This document shows, in pieces, positions 2,664 to 59,633 of a stretch of DNA of 61,097 bases. The stretch's first letter is position 1; every line of letters begins with the position of its first letter. The notes below the pieces were generated by a model. The model saw only the letters and a list, made by a program, of their open reading frames with translations. It ran no database searches and had not been told where the DNA came from. The stretch covers positions 1 to 61,097 of the forward strand of contig JAUWQI010000005.1 in the NCBI GenBank assembly GCA_030611085.1, written 5' to 3'. This stretch comes from Dehalococcoidia bacterium (GTDB lineage Bacteria; Chloroflexota; Dehalococcoidia; GIF9; AB-539-J10). A program made the position numbers and the translations under genes.

Positions 2664-2734
2664 TGGCTTTGACTACCAAAGAGAAGAGTTTCTCAAAAGT
2701 TAATTATAATATCCTGCAAGAATAGCTGCACTAT

Positions 2735-2895
2735 ATCATTGCGAGGAGCAAGATTCCTCGCTTGTCGTTACGAGGCTGGTCCTGAACGAAGTGAAGGAAC
2801 TCAGCCGAATCAATCTCAAAATAAGCTCGGAACAAGCTCCACAATCTCAAAGCAGGATAGCAAAGATTACTTCACTTCGCTTATAGCTGACAGGA
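2735..2895. repeat. Pile of dispersed hairpin repeats (TGTCATT...AATCTC family and relatives)
   Basis: tcattGCGAGGAgcaagatTCCTCGC hairpin at 2736-2761; ctgaacgaagtgaaggaa (also at 19905-19925 in reverse); direct repeat caatctcaaa at 2811-2820 and 2842-2851; reversed family-A copy gattacttcacttcgcttatagctgaca at 2866-2893. Confidence 0.8.
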
Positions 2896-2907
2896 AAAAA
2901 TTGGCAA

Positions 2908-3141
2908 TCAGCTATTAATTTGATTATAAGCTTTAATCCTTCCCCTTATCCACTCCCAATCAGGCTCGCCATGCTCAAAGAAAGACTTAAAGTTACTCTT
3001 CAGCCACTCGTAGTAATCATCCTCGACATACTGGCAAAAAGCTTCCACAAGCTGTTCCTTGGAAATGCCCTTGGGAATCTTTAGCTCTATATCCTCAAAT
3101 TCGCAATCAAGAAATTCTTCAACTACATCTCTATCAAGCAT
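2908..3141 (-). CDS. Small acidic protein of unknown function, last gene of the 4-gene cassette
   Basis: 77 aa, rich in D/E and W (EPDWEWIRGRIKAY). Its ATG overlaps the methyltransferase stop (ATGCTTGA, 3134-3141), with GGAGA 8 nt upstream. No recognisable motif. Confidence 0.55.
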   Translation of the reverse strand: MLDRDVVEEFLDCEFEDIELKIPKGISKEQLVEAFCQYVEDDYYEWLKSNFKSFFEHGEPDWEWIRGRIKAYNQINS

Positions 3142-4060: not shown

Positions 4061-5123
4061 TAACACCTCCCCGACCAACTACTTGATTAAAAGTGGCATT
4101 TCTTCCATTCGCAGATGGTTGATACTCAAGAAGAATCAATGAACCATTAACACCTTGCCTATTCCGCTCTCTTGAATACTCTATAACATGTTCATCGAAT
4201 GCCCTTCCAACCAAACATCCAACAATGATGTCTGAGTTTACGTCCACTAAATCCTTCTGATTGAACAGGTCCATATAATAGAGAACTTGAGAAAGACTTT
4301 TAGTATCACATTTGCCTGTTTTCACCTCAAGAGTAATGTAGGTTGATGTTCCTTCAATTCTATTTATGCAGAGAATATCAATAGATTTTCTTGTAGTTTG
4401 AGCTATAAAGACCTCATTCATAAAGTCCGTTATATCTCCAAAGATATCTAAAAGATACGGATCCCTTTGGGCAAGTTTATACATTAACAAAGCTTTAATA
4501 GAGTTTTCATATCTCCCAATGTCCCCTATTTCACGGTGAAGAGGAAGCACACTGGTGGATGGCTCCAACAAATTGAATCCTACTTTTTCCTGTCTTCGGC
4601 GTTGCCGATAATCCCGATGTAATAACCTAATGATCTCATTAGCCTCATCTTCTCCTACCTTTCTAATACTCCTTGCTTCTATATTTACCTCATTCTCAAG
4701 AGTCGCAAGTGACCATATTCTTCGGCTTTCAATTAACTCATAAAAATCCGTTACTTCGATGTTTGCATCATAATCACATAAATACCTATATTCCGGATAC
4801 GGGCTAAACAAAAAACGATAAGGAAACACCTCAAACCTATCTCCCCAAATTATTGATTTATCATAGAATGGATCGCTTCTTACGATATAAACACCATGCA
4901 CACTGCTAGGTTTATCTCGCCCCAATACATGAAAAAACACCACATCCCCCGCCTTCATCCCAATGAGGTCTCTAATTATCGAATACTTTGTTTTTGAGTC
5001 AAACTCCTGATAAGAACCTTGCCTTACCCTCCCGATTTTGTTCCCGTATATCCCCATAGTTAAGGTAGTTTCCCAATCCCTATCAGATATTGAACAGATA
5101 AATGCACCCACTATATCACCCAA
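4047..5123 (-). CDS. Fusion protein: N-terminal PUA/EVE-like domain + C-terminal PD-(D/E)xK nuclease-like domain
   Basis: 358 aa. The N-terminal part carries MKAGDVVFFHV...VHGVYIVRSDPFYD, an EVE/PUA-like signature. The C-terminal part carries SIDILCINRIEGTSTYITLEVKTGK...QVLYYMD, a D...E-x-K core as in NucS/restriction folds. The start is TTG 5123 or GTG 5111. It overlaps both neighbours. Confidence 0.6.
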   Translation of the reverse strand: MGDIVGAFICSISDRDWETTLTMGIYGNKIGRVRQGSYQEFDSKTKYSIIRDLIGMKAGDVVFFHVLGRDKPSSVHGVYIVRSDPFYDKSIIWGDRFEVFPYRFLFSPYPEYRYLCDYDANIEVTDFYELIESRRIWSLATLENEVNIEARSIRKVGEDEANEIIRLLHRDYRQRRRQEKVGFNLLEPSTSVLPLHREIGDIGRYENSIKALLMYKLAQRDPYLLDIFGDITDFMNEVFIAQTTRKSIDILCINRIEGTSTYITLEVKTGKCDTKSLSQVLYYMDLFNQKDLVDVNSDIIVGCLVGRAFDEHVIEYSRERNRQGVNGSLILLEYQPSANGRNATFNQVVGRGGVNEGD

Positions 5124-5932: not shown

Positions 5933-5974
5933 TGGATTTACCTCTTTTAGATTGTTTCGCTTCTCCTTCACAGA

Positions 5975-6066
5975 GTTTACCCTGAGCACTGCGAGATTCT
6001 TCGCTCCGCTCAGAATGACAAGGAGTGAAGGGCTCGGGGGCTTCGGCTCACTGCAATGACAAGCAT
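5975..6066. repeat. Two reversed hairpin-repeat copies (TGTCATT family)
   Basis: The reverse complement reads cttgtcattctgagcggagcgaagaatctcgcagtgctcagggt and gcttgtcattgcagtgagccgaagccc. The second matches 19692-19720. Confidence 0.8.
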
Positions 6067-19270: not shown

Positions 19271-20641
19271 TTAATCCAGGGGGTTGATGACTAATCCAGC
19301 GGGGTCTTTAGGATAAAAGTAGGTTGATTTGCGTGGCAACTTGTCTTTTGCATTAACAACAGCCTTTACTATCTTTGGCTGTGGGGGAGTCAATAAGAAG
19401 GCTAATTGATATTTACTCTCTTTTATTTGCTGGTAGGCTTCATTTACATTCATGGTATAAGCAATGTCTCCGCTATTCTGCGCCAGCCCTAGCATCTTGT
19501 CTAGAATAATATGATTAAGAAGACTAACGCTAAACTGTCTATAAGCTTGAGAACGATTACCAGGTATCATAGTCTCAATGGAAGCATCTTGACGTTGTTT
19601 TAGCACTACCAGAAATTGAGCCTCTAAGCCTAAAATTCCTAAAGTTGCCTCACCAATCATTTTGGAGATTGCTTCGCTTTCCCTTCGCTTCGCTCTGGGC
19701 TTCGGCTCACCGCAATGACTAAAGAAGTCCCCAGTTAATGGAACAAAATCCAGGGTAAAGAAGTTTCCAAGCTGGCTTTCTAGCTTAGCCAAAGTAGAGG
19801 GTGCTATGCCACGCGCTAATCTATGGAGAGGAAGAATAACTAATCCAGGGTCGGAAAAATTAACCAATTCCATCATTGTATAATCGTAAGCTTCGTTCCG
19901 AGATTCTTCACTTCGTTCAGAATGATAGCTATGTCTTTCCTGCTGATAAGCTAGTGCCGTTTCGTATCTATGATGGCCGTCAGCCATATAAAGAGGTTGA
20001 GCGACTAAGGACTGACTTATTTGATGAATGAGGCTAGTATCGGTTATTGCCCAGATAATATGTCTTTCGTCACCCTCACCCTGTTCCTCTTTCATCAAGG
20101 AGGAGGGAACTGACATCTCGATTATGGGCTTAACTTGAGATGCCTCAGCTAACAATGGGGCAATTTTTTGTTCAGGATCCTGATATAGGGAAAACACTGG
20201 GCTGAAATTAGCTCGACAAGCGCGCATCAACTGTAAGCGGTCACCTTTAGCTTTAGAGTATGTTTCTTCGTGAGGATATATGCCGGTACCCCATGGTTCT
20301 AGCTTAACCCGAGCTATCAGCCCACGCCGCTTCCTTTCTTCCCCTAAGTAAGTAAAATAATGATCGTGTAAGTAAAAGGCGGGACAATCATCAATCTGAA
20401 GAATTCCTTGTTTTAGCCATTGTTGAAAGGTAATAGAAGCGCGGCTGTATTTGCTATTTGAGTCATTATCTCCGACTTGCCTTGGCGGCAATTCCAAGTG
20501 AATAGCATTGTAATCACTCATTTCGCAGTGAAAATTTTGCTGCTCAGGAGTGATAACATCATACGGAGGGCTGATGACTGCAGCTAAATCCCCAATAATC
20601 CCTTGATTGTAGCGTATGCCGCGAAATGGACAAATTTCCAT
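19271..20641 (-). CDS. DUF1015-family protein
   Basis: 456 aa. The N-terminal ISPPYDVITPEQQ is typical of the family. It carries two in-frame repeat insertions. Confidence 0.7.
   Translation of the reverse strand: MEICPFRGIRYNQGIIGDLAAVISPPYDVITPEQQNFHCEMSDYNAIHLELPPRQVGDNDSNSKYSRASITFQQWLKQGILQIDDCPAFYLHDHYFTYLGEERKRRGLIARVKLEPWGTGIYPHEETYSKAKGDRLQLMRACRANFSPVFSLYQDPEQKIAPLLAEASQVKPIIEMSVPSSLMKEEQGEGDERHIIWAITDTSLIHQISQSLVAQPLYMADGHHRYETALAYQQERHSYHSERSEESRNEAYDYTMMELVNFSDPGLVILPLHRLARGIAPSTLAKLESQLGNFFTLDFVPLTGDFFSHCGEPKPRAKRRESEAISKMIGEATLGILGLEAQFLVVLKQRQDASIETMIPGNRSQAYRQFSVSLLNHIILDKMLGLAQNSGDIAYTMNVNEAYQQIKESKYQLAFLLTPPQPKIVKAVVNAKDKLPRKSTYFYPKDPAGLVINPLD
19665..19720. repeat. TGTCATT-family repeat (reversed) inside the DUF1015 CDS
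   Basis: The reverse complement reads gtcattgcggtgagccgaagccc...gcgaagcaatctc and encodes HCGEPKPRAKRRESEAISK. Confidence 0.8.
19890..19929. repeat. TGTCATT-family repeat (reversed) inside the DUF1015 CDS
   Basis: The reverse complement reads gctatcattctgaacgaagtgaagaatctcggaacgaagc and encodes SYHSERSEESRNEA. Confidence 0.8.
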
Positions 20642-23676: not shown

Positions 23677-23740
23677 ACGAGCAAAGAAAAATGGCTAGGG
23701 ACACCATTTTACCACCAGCACACTTTAAATAACTGCACTA

Positions 23741-23769
23741 TGTCATTGCGAGCAAAGCGAAGCAATCTA
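23741..23769. repeat. TGTCATT-family repeat
   Basis: tgtcattgcgagcaaagcgaagcaatcta, nearly identical to 29680-29708 and 51592-51620. Confidence 0.85.
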
Positions 23770-27608: not shown

Positions 27609-27620
27609 CTGCCCACCCAG

Positions 27621-27697
27621 TGTCATTCTGAGGGAGCAACGCGACCGAAGAATCTCAGAGACCCTTCCCTTTCGTTTCACTCAGGGTCAGGGTGACA
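27621..27697 (+). repeat. Full-length long-hairpin repeat (TGTCATTCTGAG...CTCAGGGTGACA type)
   Basis: tgtcattctgagggagcaacgcgaccgaagaatctc...ctcagggtcagggtgaca. The termini pair with two G-U wobbles on the + strand only. Confidence 0.85.
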
Positions 27698-29086: not shown

Positions 29087-29722
29087 ATGAATACCAGAAA
29101 GAAGATTGGTGTCCTTGCTTTGCAAGGTGCTTTTACTGAACATATCGCTAGCTTACAAAAACTAGGGGTAGAGGCAGCAGCTATACGTCTGCCCCAAGCC
29201 CTTGAAAGCTTAGACGGACTTATCATCCCTGGAGGAGAATCTACCACTATTGGGCGGTTGATGTTGCCCTATGGTTTTGTGAAAGCGTTAAGGATATTAA
29301 GCCAAGATGGTTTTCCCATGTTTGGAACTTGTGCTGGCATGATTTTGCTTTCCAAAGGTGCCCTTGATTTAGATGTAGAAACCATTGGAGCTATGGATAT
29401 AAAGGTGAGGCGCAACGCTTTTGGCAGACAGGTCGATAGTTTTGAGACACTCTTGCCAGTGCCAGCTTTGGGTGAAGTTCCTTTTCCCGCTGTATTTATC
29501 AGGGCGCCTGTTATCGTAGAGACAGGACCTGGGGTGGAAATTCTAGCTAGCCTTCCTGATGGCGCTCCTGTTGCTGCCAGGCAAGGAAATTTGCTGGTTT
29601 CAGCTTTTCATCCTGAGCTGACTTCAGACTTGAGGTTCCATGCTTATTTTCTAGACATCGTTTCTGCTTATGCTCCCAATGTCATTGCGAGCGAAGCGAA
29701 GCAATCTGAGCTGGGTACCTAG
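29087..29722 (+). CDS. pdxT: Pyridoxal 5'-phosphate synthase glutaminase subunit PdxT
   Basis: 211 aa, with GVLALQGAF, the catalytic Cys in GTCAGMILL, and AFHPELT. The C-terminal ~15 aa (NVIASEAKQSELGT) are encoded by a repeat. Confidence 0.9.
   Translation: MNTRKKIGVLALQGAFTEHIASLQKLGVEAAAIRLPQALESLDGLIIPGGESTTIGRLMLPYGFVKALRILSQDGFPMFGTCAGMILLSKGALDLDVETIGAMDIKVRRNAFGRQVDSFETLLPVPALGEVPFPAVFIRAPVIVETGPGVEILASLPDGAPVAARQGNLLVSAFHPELTSDLRFHAYFLDIVSAYAPNVIASEAKQSELGT
29680..29708. repeat. TGTCATT-family repeat forming the pdxT 3' end
   Basis: tgtcattgcgagcgaagcgaagcaatctg. Confidence 0.85.
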
Positions 29723-34029: not shown

Positions 34030-34054
34030 ACCTAAGGTAAGCCGTTCACCCAAA

Positions 34055-34119
34055 TGTCATTCTGAGGGAGCGTAGCGACCGAAGAATCTCTGAGACCCTT
34101 CGCTTCGCTCAGGGTGACA
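34055..34119 (+). repeat. Full-length long-hairpin repeat (TGTCATTCTGAG...CTCAGGGTGACA type)
   Basis: tgtcattctgagggagcgtagcgaccgaagaatctctgagacccttcgcttcgctcagggtgaca. A 12-bp outer helix and a ~10-bp inner helix. Confidence 0.85.
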
Positions 34120-34160
34120 TAGAAAGTGGAGGGACAGTTACGATTTAAGGGGATACAGCC

Positions 34161-46265: not shown

Positions 46266-48800
46266 ATGTTACTAAAGACTTTGCGGCTAGCTCGTCTCAG
46301 TGTCCGTGGCATTGTTCAAGGAGTCGGTTTCAGACCTTTTGTTTATGGGTTAGCCACCAAACATAATTTGAAAGGATGGGTATGTAATACTTCTGCGGAT
46401 GTCAAAATTGAGATAGAGGGAGAGACAGAGGCTATTGAGCAGTTTTATTTGGAGCTTAAAACAAAAGCCCCGCCTCTAGCTCATATTGAAGATACAACTA
46501 TCAACTACTATCCCCCCACTGGTTATAAAAACTTTGAAATTCGCCATAGCATCGCTGAGGAGGGAAAATACCAGCTTATCTCTCCAGATATTGCTACCTG
46601 CCAAGCTTGCTTAAGCGAACTGCTAAATCCCAATGACCGGCGTTATCGCTACCCCTTTACCAATTGCACCAACTGCGGGCCTCGCTTTACTATAATCGAG
46701 GATATGCCTTACGACCGCCCTAAAACCACTATGCGCTCCTTCCAGATGTGTCCGCAATGCCAGGCAGAGTATGATGATCCACTAGACCGCCGCTTTCATG
46801 CTCAGCCAAATGCCTGCCCTAAATGTGGCCCTCATGTTGAGTTGGTTGATAACCAGGGCAGGGATATCACTGCAGCAAGCCAACGCCTTGAGCCCTTCAC
46901 CTCTTGTCATTCCGAGAGAGCCCTTCGCTCCCCATGTCATTCTGAGTGTAGCGAAGAGTCTCATTCCGATGCTATAGCCTGTGCCAGCCAGCTCCTGAAA
47001 GAGGGGAAAATCGTTGCTATTAAGGGCTTGGGGGGATTCCTTTTAGCCTGTGATGCTACCAGCGCAAGTGTAGTTAAAGCCTTACGGGAAAGGAAAAAGC
47101 GCTCCTCTAAGCCATTTGCCATAATGGTAGCCGACATTGAGGAAGCTAAAAAGCATTGCTATGTCTCTCCTGAGGAAGAGAAATTGCTTACCTCTCCCCA
47201 AAGCCCTGTTGTGCTTATGAGGTGGAAGGAAGGCTCGTCTGTATCTCCAGAGGTGGCTCCAAACTTAGCCTATCTCGGAGTTATGCTCCCATATACGCCT
47301 TTACATCACATTCTACTCCGAGATACTCAATTGCCTTTGGTGATGACCAGCGGCAATCTCAGCGAAGAACCTATTGCCAGGGATAATGATGAAGCCCTGA
47401 GAAGGCTTTCAGGAATTGCCGATTATTTCCTAATTCACAATCGGGATATATATTCTCGCTATGATGACAGTGTGGCTATAGTGGAAAGAGGAGTCAGCCA
47501 GCTTGTAAGACGAGCTCGCAGTTACGCTCCTTATCCCATTACTCTGCCTTTTAAAACTAAACAGGTGCTTGGCTGCGGCGCTGAAATGAAAAATACTTTC
47601 TGTCTGACTAGAGATAATTATGCCTTCTTATCACAGCACATTGGCGACATGGAAAATATGGAGACCTTGGAGCACTTTGATAACACCATCTCCCTTTATA
47701 AAAGGCTGTTTCGCATTGAGCCTGAAATTATCGCTTACGACCTTCACCCTGATTATCTTGCCACCAAATATGCCCAGGAGCTAGGTAACTCTAATGGCAT
47801 CAAGCTTATTCCCGTTCAGCATCATCATGCCCATATTGTTAGCTGCATGGCTGACAACGAACTTAACTCTCCGGTTATCGGTGTCGTTTTTGATGGCACA
47901 GGAATGGGTATGGATGGGCATATTTGGGGAGGGGAATTCCTCGTAGCGGACTACCTCAGTTGTAAAAGATTGGGGCATTTGGAATACCTGCCTTTGCCTG
48001 GAGGGGATGCTGCGACAAAAAGACCCTATCGCATTGCCATTGCTTATATTCTCAGCTTATTAGGAGAAGATGCCTTAAATACCGTCATTGCGGCCAATTG
48101 CCAACTGCCAACTGCCAACTCTTATGTCATTGCGAGCGCAGCGAAGCAATCTCAATCAACTTTTATGCAACAAGTTAGTGAAGTCGAAATGGAAATTATC
48201 AAGCGCCAAATAGCAAGAGAGCTAAACTCGCCACTGACCTCAAGCATGGGGCGCCTGTTTGATGCTATATCAGCACTAATAGGAATAAGAGGTGAAATAG
48301 ATTGTGAAGGACAGGCGGCCGTAGAGCTGGAAATGGCTGCCTATAAGGACTGCCCCGGGGCCTTCGCTTTCTGTCATTCTGAGGGAGGGAAGCGACCGAA
48401 GAATCTCACCCCAGATAAACTCCTCAAAGAAACGGACGATAAAGAAAGCTACCCATATAGCATAACCGAGGATAAAGGAATAAGAATTATAGGCTTGGGC
48501 AGCTTATTCTCAGCCATAATCGAAGACTTAAAGCGGGGCATATCTCAAGGAGAAATATCAGTTAAATTTCACGACACCATAGCTCAAATGACCAATGCTA
48601 TGTGCCAACTGATAGCCAGTGAAACTAATATCAACCAAGTAGCCTTAAGTGGTGGCGTATTCCAAAACCGATTGCTATTAAGAAAGACAGTTAGCTTACT
48701 GGAAAACAGTGGCTTCCAGGTGTTTACCCACCAACAGGTACCTTGCAATGATGGCGGCATATCTTTAGGACAAGCAGTTATCGCCAATTTTGCTAAGTAA
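46266..48800 (+). CDS. hypF: Carbamoyltransferase HypF (with three in-frame repeat insertions)
   Basis: 844 aa. Acylphosphatase-like VRGIVQGVGFRPFVY, zinc fingers CTNCGPRFTII/CPQCQAEY/CPKCGP, YrdC-like KGLGGFLLACDA, and Kae1-like FDGTGMGMDGHIWGGE. Confidence 0.95.
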   Translation: MLLKTLRLARLSVRGIVQGVGFRPFVYGLATKHNLKGWVCNTSADVKIEIEGETEAIEQFYLELKTKAPPLAHIEDTTINYYPPTGYKNFEIRHSIAEEGKYQLISPDIATCQACLSELLNPNDRRYRYPFTNCTNCGPRFTIIEDMPYDRPKTTMRSFQMCPQCQAEYDDPLDRRFHAQPNACPKCGPHVELVDNQGRDITAASQRLEPFTSCHSERALRSPCHSECSEESHSDAIACASQLLKEGKIVAIKGLGGFLLACDATSASVVKALRERKKRSSKPFAIMVADIEEAKKHCYVSPEEEKLLTSPQSPVVLMRWKEGSSVSPEVAPNLAYLGVMLPYTPLHHILLRDTQLPLVMTSGNLSEEPIARDNDEALRRLSGIADYFLIHNRDIYSRYDDSVAIVERGVSQLVRRARSYAPYPITLPFKTKQVLGCGAEMKNTFCLTRDNYAFLSQHIGDMENMETLEHFDNTISLYKRLFRIEPEIIAYDLHPDYLATKYAQELGNSNGIKLIPVQHHHAHIVSCMADNELNSPVIGVVFDGTGMGMDGHIWGGEFLVADYLSCKRLGHLEYLPLPGGDAATKRPYRIAIAYILSLLGEDALNTVIAANCQLPTANSYVIASAAKQSQSTFMQQVSEVEMEIIKRQIARELNSPLTSSMGRLFDAISALIGIRGEIDCEGQAAVELEMAAYKDCPGAFAFCHSEGGKRPKNLTPDKLLKETDDKESYPYSITEDKGIRIIGLGSLFSAIIEDLKRGISQGEISVKFHDTIAQMTNAMCQLIASETNINQVALSGGVFQNRLLLRKTVSLLENSGFQVFTHQQVPCNDGGISLGQAVIANFAK
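46890..46968. repeat. Tandem TGTCATT-family half-elements inside hypF
   Basis: ...cttgtcattccgagagagcccttcgctccccatgtcattctgagtgtagcgaagagtctc... encodes SCHSERALRSPCHSECSEESH. Confidence 0.85.
48084..48153. repeat. Composite repeat inside hypF: half element + 4 heptamers + full TGTCATT element
   Basis: gtcattgcgg; then gccaatt/gccaact/gccaact/gccaact at 48093-48120; then tgtcattgcgagcgcagcgaagcaatctc at 48125-48153. It encodes VIAANCQLPTANSYVIASAAKQSQ. Confidence 0.85.
48361..48407. repeat. 5' half of the long-hairpin repeat inside hypF
   Basis: ccttcgctttctgtcattctgagggagggaagcgaccgaagaatctc encodes FAFCHSEGGKRPKNL. Confidence 0.85.
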
Positions 48801-48827
48801 AATCCAACTTCCCTCTCGACCTATTTT

Positions 48828-48884
48828 TGTAGTAGTTGCCTGATTTACCAGGCTCCTTATTGCCCAACGAATTGGGCAACTACA
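48828..48884. repeat. Inverted doublet of GTAG-type hairpins (REPIN-like)
   Basis: GTAGTTGCCTGAtttaCCAGGC ... TTGCCCAAcgaaTTGGGCAACTAC. The outer gtagttgcc/ggcaactac arms are complementary. Confidence 0.8.
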
Positions 48885-48909
48885 CTTCTAATCAGCCCCC
48901 GAGCCACAG

Positions 48910-49018
48910 GTGAAGAATCTCTGAGATTCTTCACTCCTCTTCGCTCCGTTCAGAATGACAAGAGAGACCCTTTCCCTTCAGTTCCTTCCTGTCATCAGGA
49001 CTCAGGGGCAGGCGACAC
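48910..49018. repeat. Perfect 12-bp-arm palindrome plus reversed long-hairpin repeat parts
   Basis: gtgaagaatctc-t-gagattcttcac (48910-48934); cgttcagaatgaca (reversed TGTCATTCTGA); ctcaggggcaggcgaca, matching the 3' end of the copy at 27680-27697. Confidence 0.8.
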
Positions 49019-49311: not shown

Positions 49312-49356
49312 TAACTATATTGAGCGAGACACGAACTAATGAGGATGTTTAAAAAT

Positions 49357-49406
49357 GTAGTTGCCCAATTTATTGGGCGACTGTGCCTGATAAATCAGGC
49401 AACTAC
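49357..49406. repeat. Inverted doublet of GTAG-type hairpins (REPIN-like)
   Basis: GTAGTTGCCCAAtttaTTGGGC-gactgt-GCCTGAtaaaTCAGGCAACTAC. Confidence 0.85.
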
Positions 49407-49498
49407 AAAAATCTGGAGGTGAAGGGTTTCTAAAATGCCCAAAAATGAACGGAAAATCAAAATTAAACAGCCTCACTAATGCAAAAGTGGGGATAAAT

Positions 49499-50677
49499 AT
49501 GAGAAAAAGACTATGCTACCTAGCAAGCATCACGGTAATATTCAGCTTGCTTCTAGTCAGTGTAGTCGGTTGTGCTCCAAAGCCAGCAGAGTTCGAGGTA
49601 GTATCCCTGGATGTCACGCCATCGGAGATGACAGTGGGGGAAACCGCTACCATCAAAGCTCAGGTCGAGAACAGCGGTGGTAGCGAGGATATCTATACCG
49701 CAATACTGACTGTCGATGGAGTGAAGGTAGGGGAAAAGGATGTGACCGTGGCAGCCGGAGCTACAATGGCAGTAACCTTCTTCCTAGTAAAAGACACCCC
49801 CGGCAGTTACCAAATTAGCATTGGAGGGCTGAGTTCAACTCTCACGGTAGAAAAAACTGCTAAGATAGAAATAAGTTTCAATCCCAATCCGGTACCCTGC
49901 AAAGATGGACATTGGTATTGGAGAGTAATCTTGACTGAAGTGAATGGCATCGGGGTTAAACTTAACAAACTGACTACAGAAATATACCAAAGTAAGCGTT
50001 TGCTTGGTACGCGGGATTACGATAGTTCTATGATCCAAGAATGGCTTGATTCAGCTTACCTTCCAGCTTCCTCTTCTGCAGATTTTGGAGCTAGTTTCCC
50101 TTGTCAGGCGATAACTCACGAAATAGTTACTGTCACCGGCACAGATGACAATGGTCACGAAATTACAGCTACGGGCAGGGTGGATTTTCTTCCACAGGTA
50201 GAGTTAAAGTATGATGATGGCAAGCCAGAAGGGAGATGGGCCATTGGTGGGCCTGGATGGGGTTATCTCGTTCAATTCTCGCCGCCATCTAGGCCATTCA
50301 CGATAAACAAGATTAAGATATTTGGCAATCTTTATGGTACAGGGTATGAAAAGCGAACATTTACAATTCAGGTTTGGGATAAGGATTTAAAGGAAATATA
50401 TAGTGTCTCATATCCACACACTAAAATTGGTCTGAGCCCGGGATGGGTAGAAATAGAGATTCCTGACCTCATTGTTGATGATAATTTCTATATTCAAGTC
50501 TGCACATACACACCTGAAGAAGGTGGTATCCAGATATTCTATGATTCAAACGTCAAGAACAAGCACTCTGAAGTGACGAAGAACTGGACAATAGCAGACT
50601 GGTATTTGCGAATCTCGAAGGAAAAAGTCAACTGGATGATAAGGGTACTAGGCACCATCACAGTGCCAGCAGATTAA
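49499..50677 (+). CDS. Predicted lipoprotein with CARDB-like Ig-fold domain and uncharacterised C-terminal domains
   Basis: MRKRLCYLASITVIFSLLLVSVVGC is a signal peptide with a lipobox Cys. VVSLDVTPSEMTVGETATIKAQVENSGG...YTAILTVDG is the CARDB-like pattern. The start is taken at Met-19 of the listed ORF. Confidence 0.55.
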   Translation: MRKRLCYLASITVIFSLLLVSVVGCAPKPAEFEVVSLDVTPSEMTVGETATIKAQVENSGGSEDIYTAILTVDGVKVGEKDVTVAAGATMAVTFFLVKDTPGSYQISIGGLSSTLTVEKTAKIEISFNPNPVPCKDGHWYWRVILTEVNGIGVKLNKLTTEIYQSKRLLGTRDYDSSMIQEWLDSAYLPASSSADFGASFPCQAITHEIVTVTGTDDNGHEITATGRVDFLPQVELKYDDGKPEGRWAIGGPGWGYLVQFSPPSRPFTINKIKIFGNLYGTGYEKRTFTIQVWDKDLKEIYSVSYPHTKIGLSPGWVEIEIPDLIVDDNFYIQVCTYTPEEGGIQIFYDSNVKNKHSEVTKNWTIADWYLRISKEKVNWMIRVLGTITVPAD

Positions 50678-50684
50678 AGTCTCA

Positions 50685-51794
50685 GTGAAATTCATTGATG
50701 AGTATCAAAATAGCGAGCTAGCCACAAAACTAGCGCAAAGAATTGCTGACCGTTCCACCAAGCCAATCAGGTTAATGGAATTCTGTGGTGGGCACACTCA
50801 TGCCATAATGAGGTATGGAATCCGCCAGCTAGTGCCCAAAACAGTGGAGATGAGGTCGGGGCCGGGCTGTCCCGTATGCGTCACAGCAACCAGCGATTTG
50901 GATAAGGCTATTGCGATAGCTCATTTGCCCGGTGTTATCATCACTACTTTCGGGGATATAATAAGGGTCCCTGGCAGCTACTCTAGCTTACAGCAGGCAA
51001 AGGCTGAAGGAGCCGATATACGAGTTGTCTATTCCATTATGGATGCTGTGGAAATAGCCAAAGCTAACCCCAGGAAATCAGTCATTTTCATCGGCATCGG
51101 TTTTGAGACCACGGCACCAACCATAGCTGCCTCTATAATTAAGGCAAAGAAGGAGGAAGTAGAGAATTTCTATGTCCTTTCCCTGCTCAAGTTAACCCCA
51201 CCAGTGATGAAGACGCTGCTAGATTTGGGCGAGGTGAAGCTAGACGGCATTGTTGGCCCAGGACATGTCAGCGTTATAATTGGCTCTTACCCCTATGAAT
51301 TTATCCCCAGGAATTATGGGGTCGCCTGCGTTATCTCAGGCTTTGAGCCATTGGATATCCTGTTATGTATAGACAAGCTAGTGGAGCAAGTTGAAAGTGG
51401 CAAGCCACAGGTGGAGATAGCCTACCGTCGTGGAGTAAAGCCCCAAGGCAATAAGAAAGCTCTGGAGTCGATGAATGAGGTTTTTGAAATTGATGGTGCT
51501 GACTGGCGAGGAATTGGCATTGTGCCTCAAAGTGGCCTGAAGATTAACCAAAAATACCAGCATTTTGATGCCGACAAAGCCTTCCCCGACTTGTCATTGC
51601 GAGCGAAGCGAAGCAATCTCGAAAAGGAGCCCAGGGGATGTCGCTGCGGAGATATACTGCGTGGTGTAGCCACACCGCTTGAGTGTAAGCTTTTTGGCAA
51701 GGTTTGCACTCCAGAAAAGCCTGTAGGTCCTTGCATGGTCTCCAGTGAAGGTGCCTGTGCTGCCTATTATCAGTATGGAGCAAGCTATGAATGA
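50685..51794 (+). CDS. hypD: Hydrogenase maturation protein HypD (with one in-frame repeat insertion)
   Basis: 369 aa, GTG start, with GPGCPVCV, GFETTAP, CRCGDILRG and CMVSSEGACAAYY. Confidence 0.95.
   Translation: MKFIDEYQNSELATKLAQRIADRSTKPIRLMEFCGGHTHAIMRYGIRQLVPKTVEMRSGPGCPVCVTATSDLDKAIAIAHLPGVIITTFGDIIRVPGSYSSLQQAKAEGADIRVVYSIMDAVEIAKANPRKSVIFIGIGFETTAPTIAASIIKAKKEEVENFYVLSLLKLTPPVMKTLLDLGEVKLDGIVGPGHVSVIIGSYPYEFIPRNYGVACVISGFEPLDILLCIDKLVEQVESGKPQVEIAYRRGVKPQGNKKALESMNEVFEIDGADWRGIGIVPQSGLKINQKYQHFDADKAFPDLSLRAKRSNLEKEPRGCRCGDILRGVATPLECKLFGKVCTPEKPVGPCMVSSEGACAAYYQYGASYE
51592..51620. repeat. TGTCATT-family repeat inside hypD
   Basis: tgtcattgcgagcgaagcgaagcaatctc encodes LSLRAKRSNLE. 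Confidence 0.88.
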
Positions 51795-54212: not shown

Positions 54213-56780
54213 TTAGCTTGCCGCTAGAGCATGCCGATAAATTTGCTCAAAGGTGGTGGCTGTTGTAGAGCGAAACACCTCCTCAGTAACTTTTATGTAA
54301 CGCCAAAGAATGCTTGTCAGAGCGCCGGCATCTTGACACCACTTCTTAGCTCGGGCGTCCTTCTGAGCTACATCAATATCCTCTCGTCCCTTAGTTTCCA
54401 CAATGAACATTTCCCCGGCAATGCTTCTTACTATGAAATCAGGCCAATAGGAATGCCAGCCTCCTCGTGTGTCAAGATACTCGATGGAGAAAGGCGTGTT
54501 TTGGGTTAATTTAGCGAAGGCGTCAATATCTTGTGCTCCTTCGAGAAAAGAGGCAAACTCTGCCTCAAAGCGGTTATCACAGGCTACCAGGTTAAAGACT
54601 GTCTTTCGCGCCCGCGTGACTTCCCTTGACCAAAGGAAGGCGGGAGTTGTCTCACCAACTTTCAATGGTGGTGCTGTCACTCTCACCGGCTGGGGCTTGA
54701 TAACCAAGTTATTGATTGCTTGGCTGAATATATCGAGGAGAACTTGGCGGACATCAGACTCGTTCAAACGCCGCAGCACTCGTCTCTGGCTTAAGTCAAC
54801 TTCCTTACCAAATATCACCCTCTCAAGATATGCCTGGATTTTGGGGGCAAGCTCGGCAAACTTACCTCCCGTTCTGAGGTGAACCTGCTCCAGGATCTGA
54901 TTAGTAAAGTATGCTACCACTGCTCCCGGTTCCTCAGGAACAGGCAAATCCCAGTATCGGTCTATGACCTTCTCCGCGGTCAAGGCGTCAAAACCCTCAT
55001 AATGGGTGATGTCGGTTGGCAGCTCATCTCCCAAGGGAACTGTCCTCCGAGGAAGCTTGAAAGGATCAATATCGGCAAGGGAAACAGACAACCGACTTAA
55101 AGCTGGAGAAAGCTGAGGAATGGAGAGGTCATATTCGCTCTTTTCAGGATCAGGGAGAATAGTGCGGATATCAACGTGGTCTTTGCCAATATGCGTTTCG
55201 CCAAAGGTAACCCCTTCATTTTCTAGCTCTCGGACAACATCCTCAAATGCCTTATTGCCAATGACATCTACGTTCTCGATATACCCCGAAGAGGGACCCT
55301 CCATAAGCCTGAGGCCCCGACCAATGGTTTGTTCGGGCAGGATGTCCGCCTTGGCGCTGTAGGGTCGAAGGCCAACGATAACGGTAACATTCTTCACATC
55401 CCAACCCTCTCGCAACATCAACACACTGACGATGGCAGAATAAGGATTGTCACGACTATCCACCTCACGGGCAGCCTGGCGCAACTGGTTAAGCAGCTTT
55501 TTATTAGTCGTAGTCTCGATAATTTCACCCTTGGCATTGGTGTGGATTTCCAACACCTTACCACTCAGGTCGGGGAGGGTTTCCAGATATTCAGCAATCT
55601 GGTGAGCAGCCGTGGTATTCTCGCCCATGACAAACAACACTGGCTTTCGCCTACTGTCTTTAAGAGAATCCTGGTATTCCTTCCAACGAGCTATCCCAGC
55701 GTCAATCCAAGGGCGATATCGCACATCAGCTTTATCGGAGGCTACTTCCTGCCCCTTTTCTATCCTCCCAATAATGGGGCGCTTTACGATGTCGGCCTCA
55801 ATAGCCTCAGCCACAGGATAGTCAACTATAGTCCAGGGGAAGAGAACGCCATTCTCATCCCTCGGAGTAGCAGAGAAGTCAAGTTGTGCTGCCAAACCAG
55901 CCTTTCCTCTGCCCTTAAGCTCCCCATCCAAACGGTCTATGATTTGATACCACACCAAGTCCTCACCATGAACATGGTGGCGGACATGATGCCCCTCATC
56001 ATTGAGCACCATCAAGTCGAGGTGCTTGATGATGCGGTCGATAAGTTCCTCACTGCTTACCTCAATTTTCCTCTTCGGGCTAGTGCCGACAATCGCCTTC
56101 ACCGGGTTGATTTCCTCCTGTTTCTCTCGTTGATAGAGACGCTGAATATTAGTCAGATAGAGCGTCCCCGCAGTAGTAGCAGCGACAGCCTCATCCCGCA
56201 AGATAACCTGCATATCCCACTCGGATAGCCACTCTGGTGGTATAAGAGGGTCATCGCGGAATATCTTGCCGTTCTCAAAGTCCCGTTTCAACCGCTCGAA
56301 GACGATGACATTAGGGGCAATAAGGAGAAAGTTTTTCGCCAGCGGTGAGTTTGCCTCCTTTATGGCGTGAAAGTAAGACCAGACTATCGCCAGGCTCATC
56401 ACCTTTGTTTTACCCGAACCAGTAGCCATTTTAAAGGTGTAGCGGGGCCAGCGGTCAACACGAGGGTCAACAGCAATTGGCTTATCGGGAGCAGCGAAGT
56501 CCTGCGCTAGTTTATAGAGGTTTCGTGCTTGAACAACTTCATAGCAGTAGATAAGAGTCTCAATAGCCTCCCTCTGGCAGAAGTAGTAACTGAAGGGCTT
56601 GCTGTCAGGCGATTTATGGTCTTCAAAAAACCAGTAGGTTAAGAGCCTTCTGGTGGTATTGGAGATGCCAGGATAATCTTGGTTTCGCCAATCAGTTATC
56701 GCCTCACGCAGCTTAAGCACCAGAGAGACTTGACTCTCCTGCCGACTTGTAGGTATGGCATAAGCATTGAGCAGTTTCAT
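54213..56780 (-). CDS. res: Type III restriction enzyme Res subunit (SF2 helicase + C-terminal PD-(D/E)xK nuclease)
   Basis: 855 aa. Walker A is KMATGSGKTKV, motif II is LNDEGHHV, and the C-terminal nuclease motif is YWPDFIV...FIVETKG. Confidence 0.85.
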   Translation of the reverse strand: MKLLNAYAIPTSRQESQVSLVLKLREAITDWRNQDYPGISNTTRRLLTYWFFEDHKSPDSKPFSYYFCQREAIETLIYCYEVVQARNLYKLAQDFAAPDKPIAVDPRVDRWPRYTFKMATGSGKTKVMSLAIVWSYFHAIKEANSPLAKNFLLIAPNVIVFERLKRDFENGKIFRDDPLIPPEWLSEWDMQVILRDEAVAATTAGTLYLTNIQRLYQREKQEEINPVKAIVGTSPKRKIEVSSEELIDRIIKHLDLMVLNDEGHHVRHHVHGEDLVWYQIIDRLDGELKGRGKAGLAAQLDFSATPRDENGVLFPWTIVDYPVAEAIEADIVKRPIIGRIEKGQEVASDKADVRYRPWIDAGIARWKEYQDSLKDSRRKPVLFVMGENTTAAHQIAEYLETLPDLSGKVLEIHTNAKGEIIETTTNKKLLNQLRQAAREVDSRDNPYSAIVSVLMLREGWDVKNVTVIVGLRPYSAKADILPEQTIGRGLRLMEGPSSGYIENVDVIGNKAFEDVVRELENEGVTFGETHIGKDHVDIRTILPDPEKSEYDLSIPQLSPALSRLSVSLADIDPFKLPRRTVPLGDELPTDITHYEGFDALTAEKVIDRYWDLPVPEEPGAVVAYFTNQILEQVHLRTGGKFAELAPKIQAYLERVIFGKEVDLSQRRVLRRLNESDVRQVLLDIFSQAINNLVIKPQPVRVTAPPLKVGETTPAFLWSREVTRARKTVFNLVACDNRFEAEFASFLEGAQDIDAFAKLTQNTPFSIEYLDTRGGWHSYWPDFIVRSIAGEMFIVETKGREDIDVAQKDARAKKWCQDAGALTSILWRYIKVTEEVFRSTTATTFEQIYRHALAAS

Positions 56781-56880
56781 AGCACTCCCCCAACAAGCTT
56801 GGTTACCAATATGTTACAAAATTTGACAAATGTCACAATAAATGTTATATAATAAGTAATTCGAGTCATCGAAGGTGGAT

Positions 56881-56929
56881 AACCCGTAAGGGTTAGCGTG
56901 CAAATGTCGGGGCTTCCCCGACTTTTGCA
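56881..56929 (-). terminator. Two consecutive hairpins immediately after the DUF3800 gene stop
   Basis: aaccc-gtaa-gggtt (56881-56894) and gcaaatgtcggg-gcttc-cccgacttttgc (56900-56928, one mismatch). No U-tract. Confidence 0.35.
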
Positions 56930-56930
56930 T

Positions 56931-57692
56931 TTAATCGAAAAGTTTTTGGCCATACAGATTATATTTACCTCGAAACATCTTTGCTAACCGCGTTCCAAAT
57001 GATGGTGGTGATGGAGGTATCCTGCCCTGTGAGCTCAAGATGTAAAGCTTTGACGGGTGAGCTAGCAAATCAGCTAATTGAAGCCCAGCGATATTCTGGC
57101 TTTTATATTTTACCTTGAGTTCTTTGCTAGAAAGGATCTTTTGGAACTCCTGCGTTGGAATATAATAAGTGCCGTGCTCCCAGACATATTGGTAGGCTTC
57201 TTTCAATGCTAGATCTTCCTTTCCTCCTCTGCCCTCCGCTAAAACATCTCCCTTTGCATGGTTGTATCTGAGATAACCACGGTAACGCTCCAATAAGAAA
57301 GCTAAACATAAGTGGTATGGATGGATTGCTGCATCGCCATAGCGGTCCCTATGCGCTTTTTTATCGATGACCGCAGTAAATAACTCGAATTGAGAGGTTC
57401 GCATGAACTCCATGAAATCCTTTTCCCAAGCGGCATTGCAGTCAGTGTTATCTAGCACACCGAAGGCATGGCGGCGGTTAATAATGTCTTCCCGATGTAG
57501 TATGACAGGTTCATCAGGATTATGAGGAAAATGTGATTGTTTTAAAGCTTCCAGTTGCGGCTGAAATTTAAGGCGATAGTAATCAGACTCGATAGCAATG
57601 CCAGTCAACCCAAGATAGCGACGATTAATGTCCTCTAAGTTCTTATAGGTATGGTCGCCAGACTCATCAATATACAGCCGGTAACGCTTCAT
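56931..57692 (-). CDS. DUF3800-like protein
   Basis: 253 aa. N-terminal YRLYIDESGDH and C-terminal GLQLADLLAHP, as I recall for DUF3800. It starts 18 nt after the mod stop, with AAGAAGGA as RBS. Confidence 0.55.
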   Translation of the reverse strand: MKRYRLYIDESGDHTYKNLEDINRRYLGLTGIAIESDYYRLKFQPQLEALKQSHFPHNPDEPVILHREDIINRRHAFGVLDNTDCNAAWEKDFMEFMRTSQFELFTAVIDKKAHRDRYGDAAIHPYHLCLAFLLERYRGYLRYNHAKGDVLAEGRGGKEDLALKEAYQYVWEHGTYYIPTQEFQKILSSKELKVKYKSQNIAGLQLADLLAHPSKLYILSSQGRIPPSPPSFGTRLAKMFRGKYNLYGQKLFD

Positions 57693-57710
57693 TGTCCTTC
57701 TTTTTGAGCT

Positions 57711-59633
57711 TCACCCAATTACAATCTCCACTACTTTTGTGATGTCGTTGCCAAAGATGTCCACTACCTTGACCAGCACCTTGTAGGAGCCTGGGTTTTG
57801 GTAAGTATGTGGGTCGCTCTCAGTCTTCAGGCTAGGGTGCCTCCGAGTGCGGTATGATTGCCACTGATTGTGGAAGGTATCTTCCTTAAAGTCCCAGTCC
57901 ACCGCCCAGTAGTCAATCCAGTCCGACCATTTTTTAACCTTACCCTTGAGGTCATCGGGGACAAGCTCTGGATTGGGGATAAAGAAGTTCCTGAGCCGAA
58001 CCTGGGCTGTTCTGCCCTCTTTAACTATCTCGGTCTCCAGGTGAGCCAGCTCATAGAAGTGGACATCCCCCGCCTCCACCGCCCTTCTATCCATCACCTC
58101 ACGGGGAATCTGTAAAAGCCGCAAATCAACGCCTTCCCTTCTGGCATCTGATTCATAGACATCGTGGAGCCCCATCTCCCATTCCCAGCCCAGCACATCC
58201 AGAGCGTTGAATCTGTTAGCTGAGCACTCTTTCAAGGCATCAGCAATCTCGGAGTGGGTAACCGGGGCATCGGAAGCTCCCACATGAACCATCCTTCCCC
58301 CTTTCCTGCCGTGGAGGTGAGAAAACTGGTTGACCACCGGCTGGGCGCGGTAAAGCTCAACGATAAAGGCTAAATACTCAAAGACTGCCTTCCTATCATC
58401 CTTTTCGCCGCCGTTTATCACATTCACCTGCCAGTAACGGCGCTCATATTTGCCAAGATTCAGGATTTCAAAGGGCTTGCAATCGGGAATATCTAGCAGG
58501 CGCTTCCTGGTAGTATGGATAGCAAACCTCCCTAAATCACAGCCAATCCAGCGGCGCGGTTTGTCTTTATAATAAATTGAGCGGTTTCCTTCTTTTTTTA
58601 CCCTTAGACCCTCTGCTGCAGCCAAAGTAGCTCCACTACCCATGAAAAAATCTGCTACCAAATCTCCTTCATTGGTTGATGCATCTACGATCCGTCCAAC
58701 AAGCTCAACAGGCTTTTGGGTATCATAACCAGTTTGTTCTTGTGAATGTTCGACCACAAAGGGTATCTCCCATACATCGTGCATTTGAACACCCTTAGTA
58801 GGTTCACTGGTGCGTTGAGTTATCATTCTTCCGCTTTCATCTAAAACATTTATGCGCCTCGTATCTCCGTGTACCGCTTGAGTAGAACTAGCCAATGATT
58901 GGAATAATTGATTAAACTTATAGTTTTGAGTTTTTGAATAGAACAAAATCACATCATGCATCCTTTGAAAATTATTGGATGCCGCGGTCCATCGCTTATA
59001 CCACCAGACAATCTCATTTCTAAAATTATCTCTCCCAAAAATCTCGTCCATTAACAGCTTCACATAGTGCCCCACATGCCAATCAAGATGGACATAGATA
59101 GAGCCATTATCCGCTAAGAGGTCTCGCATCAGCACCAATCGCTCATACATCATCTGAAGGTAGGAATCGGTGCTCCTGCCCCAGGTATCGTTATAGGCTT
59201 TCTGCTCAATAATGGAGGGCTGCTTTGCCACCTCCTCATCCCCCACCTTTACCCTAAAGCTGAAATCATCGCCGGTATCAAAGGGCGGGTCAATATAGAT
59301 GAGGTTGATTTTGCCTTTCATCGGCTTCAAGCCAACGGTGGGGTCGCCCTCAATGAGGGATGCCAGCACATACTTATTATCGCCCCAGACGAGTTTGTTG
59401 CGCCACGAGGGTCGCTCCACCTCGCCCTCAAAGAGGGGCAAGGGAGGCAATCCAGCGAGGAGAGGTTCTCTTTCGCGAGTAGCCCGGGATTGATTGATGG
59501 TCTCAATTACCTGGAAAGGCAAGGCAATTCGCTCTATCGGTCGGAGGTTACCTGCATCATCGTATTTGCCCTCCCAGACAAGCTCAGTCCTTCTGGCGTT
59601 AGCTCTCAGCTTTTGGTTTGGAAGTTCTGCCAT
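57711..59633 (-). CDS. mod: Type III-like DNA methyltransferase Mod (beta class, N6-adenine type) with PKD-like C-terminal domain
   Basis: 640 aa. Motif IV is LIYIDPPFDTGDDF, followed about 230 aa later by motif I DFFMGSGATLAAAEG. The C-terminus is VDWDFKED...HTYQNPGSYKVLVKVVDIFGND. Confidence 0.85.
   Translation of the reverse strand: MAELPNQKLRANARRTELVWEGKYDDAGNLRPIERIALPFQVIETINQSRATREREPLLAGLPPLPLFEGEVERPSWRNKLVWGDNKYVLASLIEGDPTVGLKPMKGKINLIYIDPPFDTGDDFSFRVKVGDEEVAKQPSIIEQKAYNDTWGRSTDSYLQMMYERLVLMRDLLADNGSIYVHLDWHVGHYVKLLMDEIFGRDNFRNEIVWWYKRWTAASNNFQRMHDVILFYSKTQNYKFNQLFQSLASSTQAVHGDTRRINVLDESGRMITQRTSEPTKGVQMHDVWEIPFVVEHSQEQTGYDTQKPVELVGRIVDASTNEGDLVADFFMGSGATLAAAEGLRVKKEGNRSIYYKDKPRRWIGCDLGRFAIHTTRKRLLDIPDCKPFEILNLGKYERRYWQVNVINGGEKDDRKAVFEYLAFIVELYRAQPVVNQFSHLHGRKGGRMVHVGASDAPVTHSEIADALKECSANRFNALDVLGWEWEMGLHDVYESDARREGVDLRLLQIPREVMDRRAVEAGDVHFYELAHLETEIVKEGRTAQVRLRNFFIPNPELVPDDLKGKVKKWSDWIDYWAVDWDFKEDTFHNQWQSYRTRRHPSLKTESDPHTYQNPGSYKVLVKVVDIFGNDITKVVEIVIG

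Follow-up and report, generated by a model that had tools for sequence, protein, structure and literature searches.

The DNA under study is a 61,097-nucleotide stretch of a Dehalococcoidia bacterium (contig JAUWQI010000005.1 of assembly GCA_030611085.1; hereafter, the window) that harbors a complete Mvh-type [NiFe]-hydrogenase and maturation (hyp) cluster. By its homologs and related loci, the window belongs among uncultured Dehalococcoidia. Our subject is one gene of that cluster, hypF, which a preliminary description of the window reported to be interrupted, without loss of the reading frame, by three insertions of a dispersed repeat. Indeed, the open reading frame (ORF) is intact over its 844 codons, and all three peptides quoted for the insertions are encoded at the positions given for them. 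The coordinates of the features discussed below are collected in Table 1.

By its architecture, the product is a HypF as that protein is defined: a single chain comprising acylphosphatase, two zinc-finger motifs, and YrdC-like and Kae1-like parts. The Pfam domain set is complete, with all matches above the cut-offs (acylphosphatase, residues 10–92; two zf-HYPF, ending at residue 193; YrdC-like, 243–416; HypF_C, 431–530; HypF_C_2, 539–836). A phmmer search of the PDB matched the protein along its whole length to the solved HypFs 3vth, 4g9i and 3tsp (best E = 8.5e-231). The catalytic and metal-binding residues are invariant among 120 close relatives that were compared. In the core of the gene, the ratio of nonsynonymous to synonymous divergence (dN/dS) was 0.058–0.066 at a dS of 1.3–1.5 (versus three relatives). 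Because the ORF is intact, the dN/dS is about 0.06 and a complete hydrogenase/hyp cluster surrounds the gene, we conclude from sequence that hypF is under strong purifying selection and is not a pseudogene.

Three in-frame extra segments stand out in this gene, with net gains of 90, 69 and 75 nt (30, 23 and 25 residues). The total gain is 78 residues in the 844-residue protein, as compared to a length of 761–762 residues for 3vth and for the insert-free ortholog P0032 (762 residues, 76% identical to the window HypF). The alignments to 3vth, 4g9i and 3tsp are each interrupted at the three sites (flanking residues 196/200, 561/568 and 626/630 in 3vth), and only 0–7 residues occupy these positions in the three structures and in insert-free orthologs. 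No conserved HypF residue aligned to any of the segments, in the structures or in outgroup orthologs, as expected of insertions from the preliminary description. Site boundaries were refined against insert-free orthologs and the 120 relatives; in comparison with the latter, the window HypF has extra residues only at the three sites and at the single residue 510. The places first reported were right; site 3 was widened (from 48361–48407), because its match to an intergenic composite repeat continues to approximately position 48440. Site lengths were also taken between conserved anchors in 80 species-representative loci. Site 1 spans 27 residues in its basal state, found in about 70 of the 80 loci, versus 57 in the window; the corresponding figures are 50–52 versus 75 for site 2 and 75–79 versus 104 for site 3.

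Table 1. Features of the window, numbered from its first nucleotide (CDS, coding sequence; aa, amino-acid residues; TRF, Tandem Repeats Finder; TIR, terminal inverted repeat). Single numbers mark the positions of genes or repeat copies as reported.
Feature	Position	Strand	Remarks
hypF CDS (carbamoyltransferase HypF, 844 aa, intact)	46266..48800	+	ORF list, Pfam, PDB matches, dN/dS
hypF site 1 insert, 90 nt, aa 204-233, +30 aa	46875..46964	+	repeat-like part 46890-46964
hypF site 2 insert, 69 nt, aa 607-629, +23 aa	48084..48152	+	Kae1-like C-terminal subdomain
(GCCAACT)x4 heptamer array, nested in site-2 unit	48093..48120	+	TRF: period 7, 4.0 copies, 95% matches
hypF site 3 variable segment, aa 695-726, net +75 nt (+25 aa) over insert-free orthologs	48348..48443	+	
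Intergenic composite: TIR-like CCCTTCAC..GTGAAGG, unit TGTCATTCTGAGCGGAGCGAAGAATCTC, decayed inverted half	5965..6045	-	repeat families I4-I6
Intergenic dimer, two inverted units, tags outward	27616..27696	+	families D1, D6; RNA fold pairs tagged ends
Intergenic dimer, ATTCT unit then inverted ACCCT unit, tags outward	34050..34120	+	near-perfect palindrome of ~68 nt
Intergenic single ATTGC-type unit	23740..23769	+	repeat family D2
Short intergenic unit AGTCATTGCGAGGAATGAAGCAATCTC, directly 3' of amt stop codon	37905..37935	+	
Intergenic unit plus hairpin, ~100 nt downstream of hypF	48900..48975	-	families I17, D4, D6
Unit TGTCATTGCGAGCGAAGCGAAGCAATCTC in frame in hypD (CDS 50685-51794), aa 303-312, read LSLRAKRSNL, net +6 aa	51591..51620	+	tblastn vs orthologs
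Unit forming pdxT C-terminal tail (CDS 29087-29722, ends ..NVIASEAKQSELGT*)	29679..29708	+	unit = aa 198-208
ATTCT-type unit in frame in DUF1015 gene (CDS 19271-20641, -), aa 237-250, read HSYHSERSEESRNE	19892..19933	-	
Second repeat-derived segment in DUF1015 gene, aa 307-330 (FSHCGEPKPRAKRRESEAISKM)	19652..19723	-	GCTTC-rich repeat family D11, TRF
GTAG-tagged repeat copies, all intergenic	26320, 29054, 48832, 49357	+	
GTAG-tagged repeat copies, all intergenic	49406, 48883, 9823	-	
hypA	39957		hydrogenase/hyp cluster
hypB	40229		hydrogenase/hyp cluster
Hydrogenase small subunit	41141		hydrogenase/hyp cluster
Hydrogenase large subunit	42136		hydrogenase/hyp cluster
FAD/FeS subunit	43616		hydrogenase/hyp cluster
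Maturation protease	45396		hydrogenase/hyp cluster
MvhD	45797		hydrogenase/hyp cluster
CARDB-domain protein, signal-like N-terminus	49445-50677		between hypF and hypD
hypD	50685		hydrogenase/hyp cluster
hypE	51745		hydrogenase/hyp cluster

The three segments are built differently. Site 1 lies in the linker between the zinc-finger domain (end, residue 193) and the YrdC-like domain (start, residue 243), and its insert is the longest found there among the 120 relatives. It holds two tagged pieces, TGTCATTCCGAG at 46905 and TGTCATTCTGAG..GAGTCTC at 46935–46962, and a GAGCCCTTCRC module precedes each of them. Site 2 consists of a 27-nt unit and a 42-nt nested piece. It opens with GTCATTGCG (a 9-bp copy of the unit's 5′ end, 48084–48092), continues with 33 nt that contain the heptamer array and closes with the complete unit TGTCATTGCGAGCGCAGCGAAGCAATCTC (48124–48152); the 42 nested nucleotides thus comprise these 33 nt and the 9-bp direct repeat GTCATTGCG that flanks them. 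This arrangement (48084–48134) is such as would follow duplicative insertion or slippage within an older unit. The period-7 array is the sole one in 1.28 Mb of related loci, and for this reason we place it outside the repeat family; the earlier attribution of all three segments to TGTCATT-type elements therefore holds for the parts that match dispersed copies and not for this separate nested piece. A derivation of the heptamer piece from a second, GTAG-tagged repeat family (see below) was considered, but the resemblance is loose (AATTG..CAACT) and we do not claim it. Site 3 is a whole composite, made up of a CCTTCGC module, the unit TGTCATTCTGAGGGAGGGAAGCGACCGAAGAATCTC (48371–48406) and a decayed inverted half (CCCAGATAAACTCCTCAAAGAAAC).

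The three sites are likely, though not proven, to be loops or linkers: site 1 would link two domains, and the other two would be segments of the Kae1-like subdomain that vary. Sites 2 and 3 both fall inside HypF_C_2, where 298 residues cover a 241-position profile. AlphaFold2 models made with 35 and then 120 relatives were poor (mean pLDDT, the predicted local distance difference test score, 49.5 and 56.6). In these poor models, the stretches of pLDDT below 50 include residues 203–234, 607–659 and 696–725, coinciding with the inserts. Because of the quality of the models, the loop location was read from the alignment to solved HypFs.

The occurrence of such segments in a conserved enzyme raised a question: what kind of DNA are they made of? 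The unit that recurs in them has a fixed order, namely a [C/T]GTC tag, a 5-nt arm, GA(G), a variable inner hairpin (for example GCGAAGC, GCTGGCGAAGCCAGC or TCCCGATTTATCGGGA), (C)GAA or GTG, the complementary arm and a C(T/C)N tail. The tag motif TGTCATTSYGAG has 14 matches in the window versus 0.99 expected, a number reached in none of 100 shuffles. In the window and the Dehalococcoidia loci, an exactly complementary 5-mer lay no more than 70 nt away in 72 of 132 matches to tag plus GAG; a control stretch gave 7. The outer arms co-vary (ATTGC/GCAAT, 68; ATTCT/AGAAT, 11; ACCCT/AGGGT, 2; mixed, 1), and the inner stems are self-complementary despite their differing sequences. Pairing of the arms was counted directly in the units, as a MAFFT alignment of these short sequences misplaced a gap. 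Overall, units are 28–63 nt long, with a constant 5-bp stem, then a GA-rich internal loop and an inner hairpin that varies from 2 to 8 bp; composites reach ~80–110 nt and have the inverted ends CCCTTCRC..GYGAAGG.

Between genes, copies are found singly, as inverted dimers or as composites whose ends are inverted, and all three hypF sites have counterparts among them. Positions 46932–46962 and 46890–46916 of site 1 match 5993–6039 (minus strand) at 87–89% identity. The site-3 segment can be aligned over ~85 nt with the composite at 5960–6050 (minus strand) in a multiple alignment, and this composite is the best intergenic match for sites 1 and 3 alike. Site 3 falls in repeat families D1 and I5, and its positions 48367–48422 also match copies at 27616 and 34050; positions 48124–48157 of site 2 match copies at 23740, 29679 and 51591. 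The dimer at ~34050–34120 folds with −30.8 kcal/mol (z = −3.9; none of 200 shuffles as good). We also considered the single in-gene units as unusually stable hairpins and rejected this idea (z from −1.2 to +1.0); only the dimer (34045–34125) stands out. Inverted dimers are also present in loci L030, L035, L038, L048, L051 and L060, and many related loci carry a unit directly after the hypF stop codon. Of 69 units, 26 are intragenic, in a sample that is biased towards hypF and hypD. No Rfam family reached its gathering threshold anywhere in the window, with only chance-level matches near hypF (E = 0.27 and 0.74).

As the preliminary description held, the elements also occur in hypD, pdxT and the DUF1015 gene in addition to intergenic DNA; in pdxT, however, the copy is not an internal insertion. 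The SNO domain of that protein ends at residue 191 of 211, and the unit forms a 3′-end fusion that supplies the C-terminal tail. At the hypD site, tblastn showed mostly SVSLKPPR in orthologs, with no unit in either orientation, and a unit of opposite orientation (GLLRFARNDK) at the same site in L020, L059, L009, L002 and L001. At residues 237–250 of the DUF1015 protein, insert-free relatives have AKE-QSVTGKE and others have VIASEAKQS-type inserts; at residues 307–330, insert-free relatives have C-QLPTDS and others CHCEPSALFVIASEAKQSH. A further repeat-like peptide of a third kind, SVPSSLMKEEQGEGDE, is found near residues 176–192 of the same protein (20066–20116, minus strand), where relatives have SPLVGEGWGEG or LSLRAKRSNL and insert-free relatives are about 12 residues shorter. 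Units are read in every one of the three forward frames and in at least one of the reverse frames. With hypF, hypD, at least two sites in the DUF1015 gene and the pdxT tail, the earlier count of at least seven events in 61 kb is a fair one.

The history of the hypF sites was read on a neighbor-joining tree of the insert-free HypF core. Of the 120 relatives, 89 lack an insert at site 1, 15 at site 2 and 16 at site 3. Since site 2 is filled in 105 and site 3 in 104, these two represent clade-wide states rather than fresh events of this genome. Outgroup Dehalococcoidia (56–66% identity, including a metagenome-assembled genome (MAG) labeled Dehalococcoides mccartyi) are empty at all three sites, and the in-group is patchy. 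All three are indel hot spots, with differing unit types, reading frames and nested copies; the outer ends of the site DNA are constant and the interiors very different. Thus, site 3 holds an ATTCT composite in the window versus an ATTGC composite in the sister locus L001, and site 1 is of the ATTCT type in the window and L001 versus the ATTGC type in L039 and L010. In L001, site 1 has only the 18-nt form TGTCATTCTAAGTGGAGCGAAGAGTCA. The +9-residue form of site 2 (AVIASEAKQSQ) is common to many relatives; only the window has the additional 42 nt. In the closest relative (P0002, locus L201), a whole ATTCT-type composite is nested in a decayed ATTGC unit at site 2.

Presence/absence differences between close relatives, which the preliminary description had proposed to look for, were found: a 48-nt site-3 insert is present in L020 and missing in L068, at a core dS of only 0.10, and L014 and L040 form a similar pair at a dS of 0.48. 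The varied unit types and orientations, the nesting and these differences point to what were probably separate events. Two further observations concern what fills the sites. A bare small palindrome, CCCCGATTCTATCGGGG (TPILSG, +4 residues), occurs at site 1 in L030, L032 and L065 without the TGTC frame; palindromes of this type also serve as the inner hairpin in many units, a hint that small palindromes move or nest independently. In addition, a long form, GAGGAGCGAGATTCCTCGCTTAC.., fills site 3 in L020, L059 and L010, and a degenerate intergenic copy of it lies at 2734–2805 of the window.

The region was reproduced by contigs from four cold-seep metagenome runs, with one unitig spanning 46784–48153 without a single difference; no RNA run turned up among the runs that contain the sequence. 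Unitigs end at the units, yet they overlap into the same path as the window. Over the units (regions 48051–48220 and 48306–48475; runs X1–X4), the word depth was 1600–4700 versus ~25 for the rest of hypF (~60–200×), and we therefore regard the units as hugely abundant in the cold-seep community.

A core of the unit is found far outside this group. The exact 27-mer TGTCATTGCGAGCGNAGCGAAGCAATC occurs in at least 120 DNA stretches of species-representative genomes from many phyla (loci L081–L200), among them Alphaproteobacteria, Desulfobacterota, Cyanobacteria, Bacteroidota, Planctomycetota, Spirochaetota, Nitrospirota, Bacillota and a candidate-phyla-radiation (CPR) lineage; the genera include Bradyrhizobium, Afipia and Calothrix. 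One Anaerolineae contig (L121) has seven copies within 1 kb. In other phyla, CAG directly follows the 27-mer in 19 of 131 copies among the matches listed, so that the tail reads CCA. Among the same listed matches, 15 of 131 copies lie inside ORFs of at least 200 residues, a figure that caps the number of intragenic cases.

What was observed is that the segments are repeats by sequence and lie in frame, that solved structures and outgroups lack them, that the arms of the units co-vary, that units are nested, that close species differ in the presence of inserts and that the gene is under purifying selection. We consider it very probable that a palindromic repeat family akin to repetitive extragenic palindromes (REPs) supplied the three hypF segments, as single, composite or nested copies lying in frame at three tolerated positions. 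Units of this family reside mostly between genes, as single copies or inverted dimers and often just 3′ of stop codons. A copy that entered a gene would survive only if its net length were a multiple of three, its frame were free of stops and the site were permissive. Five of six frames are open in the 28–29-nt ATTGC unit, and four of six in the 28-nt ATTCT and ACCCT units; about one random hit in four within a permissive loop would pass, and thus a special mechanism is not needed. The insert would presumably be read as an extra loop peptide, putatively CHSE.., VIASEAKQS or SLRAKRSNL. Once occupied, a site may become an indel hot spot at which copies or small palindromes nest, parts are duplicated or lost and variants are exchanged, processes that would lead to differing unit types, frames and orientations at the same codons in orthologs. 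Because the units are read in every forward frame and in one or more reverse frames, we favor tolerance over a selected peptide, and the inserts are probably neutral. By analogy with REPs, movement could proceed via a single-strand, hairpin-specific HUH/Y1 transposase or by recombination between copies.

Several points weigh against this interpretation. The loop placement derives from alignment gaps relative to solved structures, the AlphaFold models being poor, and translation and retention of the inserts are assumptions. None of the ORFs in the window has a transposase domain. When filled sites were compared with empty ones, no target-site duplication was seen for the units; a single direct repeat (9 bp) was found as a flank, and it goes with the nested heptamer piece and not with the units. 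TGTC as an IS200-like target tetranucleotide was rejected, as empty sites have no TGTC at the junction. Finally, plain vertical inheritance, with decay in some lineages, would fit much of the pattern of the shared site-2 unit. The third-codon-position identity of that unit is 0.72 versus 0.61 in its flanks (10 codons), a difference too weak to claim constraint at the DNA level.

Vertical descent is taken furthest by the proposal that each site received one ancient insertion in the ancestor of the clade and has since undergone only in-place divergence, slippage and deletion, with no repeated colonization. The spread of the +9-residue site-2 form across a large clade, its decay in, for example, L002, L006 and L009, and the filled state of sites 2 and 3 in 105 and 104 of 120 relatives are what this proposal would lead one to expect. 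It accounts poorly for differing stem types at site 3 (ATTCT in the window, ATTGC in L001) and two types at site 1, for both orientations of the unit in hypD, for the whole composite with its own inverted ends nested in L201, and for presence/absence at a dS of 0.10; we consider it unlikely. The identity of the 27-mer in many phyla led us to a bolder possibility, in which the TGTC cassette is a sequence-constrained, pan-bacterial hairpin module that is re-targeted or converted at the same codons and generates loop-length variation by palindrome-in-palindrome nesting, rather than junk that is merely tolerated, its in-gene copies perhaps being mRNA pause or stability sites at domain boundaries or Cys/His peptides in an enzyme that matures a metal center. 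We regard this as quite improbable.

It is very improbable, in our judgment, that the inserts are selected functional additions, whether Cys/His peptides (CHSE..CHSEC) in an enzyme that matures a metal center or ribosome-pausing mRNA hairpins at domain boundaries. Site 1 does lie exactly at such a boundary, the inserts are kept in most relatives and some copies are near the consensus though the flanking dS is 1.3–1.5; yet the frame and sequence of the peptide differ among relatives, insert-free orthologs are common, all solved HypFs lack the inserts, the units turn up in unrelated genes as well as in intergenic DNA, and single in-gene units fold no better than shuffles. Chimeric joins at repeats during metagenome assembly are scarcely credible as the source of the segments. 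Contigs do break at units in the runs, and the words of the units are far deeper (1600–4700) than those of the gene (~25). Nonetheless, unitigs from all four runs give the same path (one of them, 46784–48153, without differences), HypF continues in frame on both flanks of every insert, and dozens of independent MAGs carry inserts at the same codons. That hypF, hypD and the other genes are decaying pseudogenes no longer resisting insertion is a notion to which the presence of several insert-bearing genes in one window lends some color; it is largely refuted by the intact ORFs with full-length Pfam matches, the dN/dS of about 0.06, catalytic motifs invariant across 120 relatives and the complete hydrogenase/hyp operon context.

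Other features of the window deserve mention. A second repeat family, with the consensus GTAGTTGCC(C/T)(A/G)ATTTAT(T/C)(G/A)GGC, is a classical GTAG-tagged REP that shows compensatory changes in its hairpin arms. The spacer that separates hypF from the CARDB gene holds two inverted pairs of it (48827–48897 and 49343–49411), and the copy at 48838–48853 scores as terminator-like. The closest relative (L201) has a HEPN/nucleotidyltransferase pair and hypC in the gap between hypF and hypD, in place of the CARDB gene; because of this difference, we consider the spacer to be variable. A Type III restriction-modification-like set (ResIII helicase, DUF3800, N6/N4 methylase) and one more DNA methylase, which stands alone, are located at 54213–59633 and 3134–4078.

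Palindromic repeats that colonize housekeeping genes in frame are best known from Rickettsia, and these observations add Dehalococcoidia, free-living bacteria of the subsurface. They also render the behavior of such inserts over time unusually clear: the same codons are hit or remodeled repeatedly, units are nested and loop length shifts by multiples of three under purifying selection. In practical terms, repeat-derived peptides (VIASEAKQS, CHSERSEES, RLLRFARND and others) inflate or confuse alignments, domain boundaries and gene calls in MAGs, and the units break metagenome assemblies. The core is identical in many phyla and no transposase is known for it, which bears on what moves or maintains REPs of the CGTC/TGTC type.

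How does this family compare with known repeats? A search of the literature turned up no description of the family or of HypF inserts in Dehalococcoidia, and searching by unit sequence returned unrelated primers only. The closest counterparts are the REPs described by Di Nocera, De Gregorio and Rocco in 2013 (PMC3733652), who distinguished GTAG- and CGTC-tagged groups and observed that the CGTC tag is "changed to TGTC" in many repeats, with a CCTC variant as well. According to that study, CGTC REPs have 8–9-bp stems that follow the tag at once and start with A-T pairs, 4–5-nt loops, a short tail (consensus CCA) and common dimers. They have no dedicated transposase known, unlike GTAG REPs with their REP-associated tyrosine transposase (RAYT). 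They were found in five phyla, mostly in Alphaproteobacteria, with Chloroflexi named only for GTAG repeats; intragenic REPs encode 7–80 residues in several phyla, sometimes with two per gene (PMC3733652). Our units are alike in that every well-formed one starts with TGTC or CGTC, that the stem follows the tag at once, with A-T at its first and second positions in the ATTGC and ATTCT types (the rare ACCCT type keeps the first pair only), and that they form inverted dimers and lie mostly between genes near ORF 3′ ends, with a minority in ORFs adding peptides. They differ in having a 5-bp constant stem, an internal loop and a variable inner hairpin. Their 3-nt tail is CTC, CCC or CCG in Dehalococcoidia and CCA in the 19 copies from other phyla noted above. 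Because the 8–9-bp stem and 4–5-nt loop are not found, we place the Dehalococcoidia family, as judged from unit structure, outside the CGTC REP superfamily, as a REP-like variant with a TGTC tag.

In-frame fusions of MITEs (miniature inverted-repeat transposable elements) and other small repeats to ORFs are on record for Enterobacteria, cyanobacteria, Streptococcus and others (Delihas 2011, PMC3184786; PMC10969869). Like these, the present units are small, non-autonomous and internal to genes or at their 3′ ends, and the composites have inverted ends; as to the target-site duplication and related autonomous insertion sequence that go with MITEs, neither was identified for the units, in filled/empty comparisons and in the ORFs of the window, respectively. 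The preliminary description had likened the hypF inserts to Rickettsia palindromic elements (RPEs), which Ogata et al. (2000), as related in PMC3184786 and PMC3733652, described as in-frame palindromic repeats in conserved housekeeping genes. The likeness is supported: in both cases a peptide is added in frame to conserved genes, several genes per genome are affected and a gene sometimes has two inserts. RPEs are longer (~105–146 bp, PMC3184786) than our units (28–63 nt) and composites (~80–110 nt), and several reading frames and both orientations are used by the units here. The link between the two runs only through the assignment of Rickettsia conorii RPE-4 and RPE-6, together with Neisseria dRS3, to the CGTC REPs (PMC3733652), which brings the comparison closer than the preliminary description had it. 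Colonization of genes in frame by REPs is thus not special to Rickettsia, and sites 2 and 3 are clade-wide. The hypF inserts are a known kind of event, REP/RPE insertion, in a new lineage; they are unusually dense there, and they come with a variant unit and a clear pattern of hot spots and nesting.

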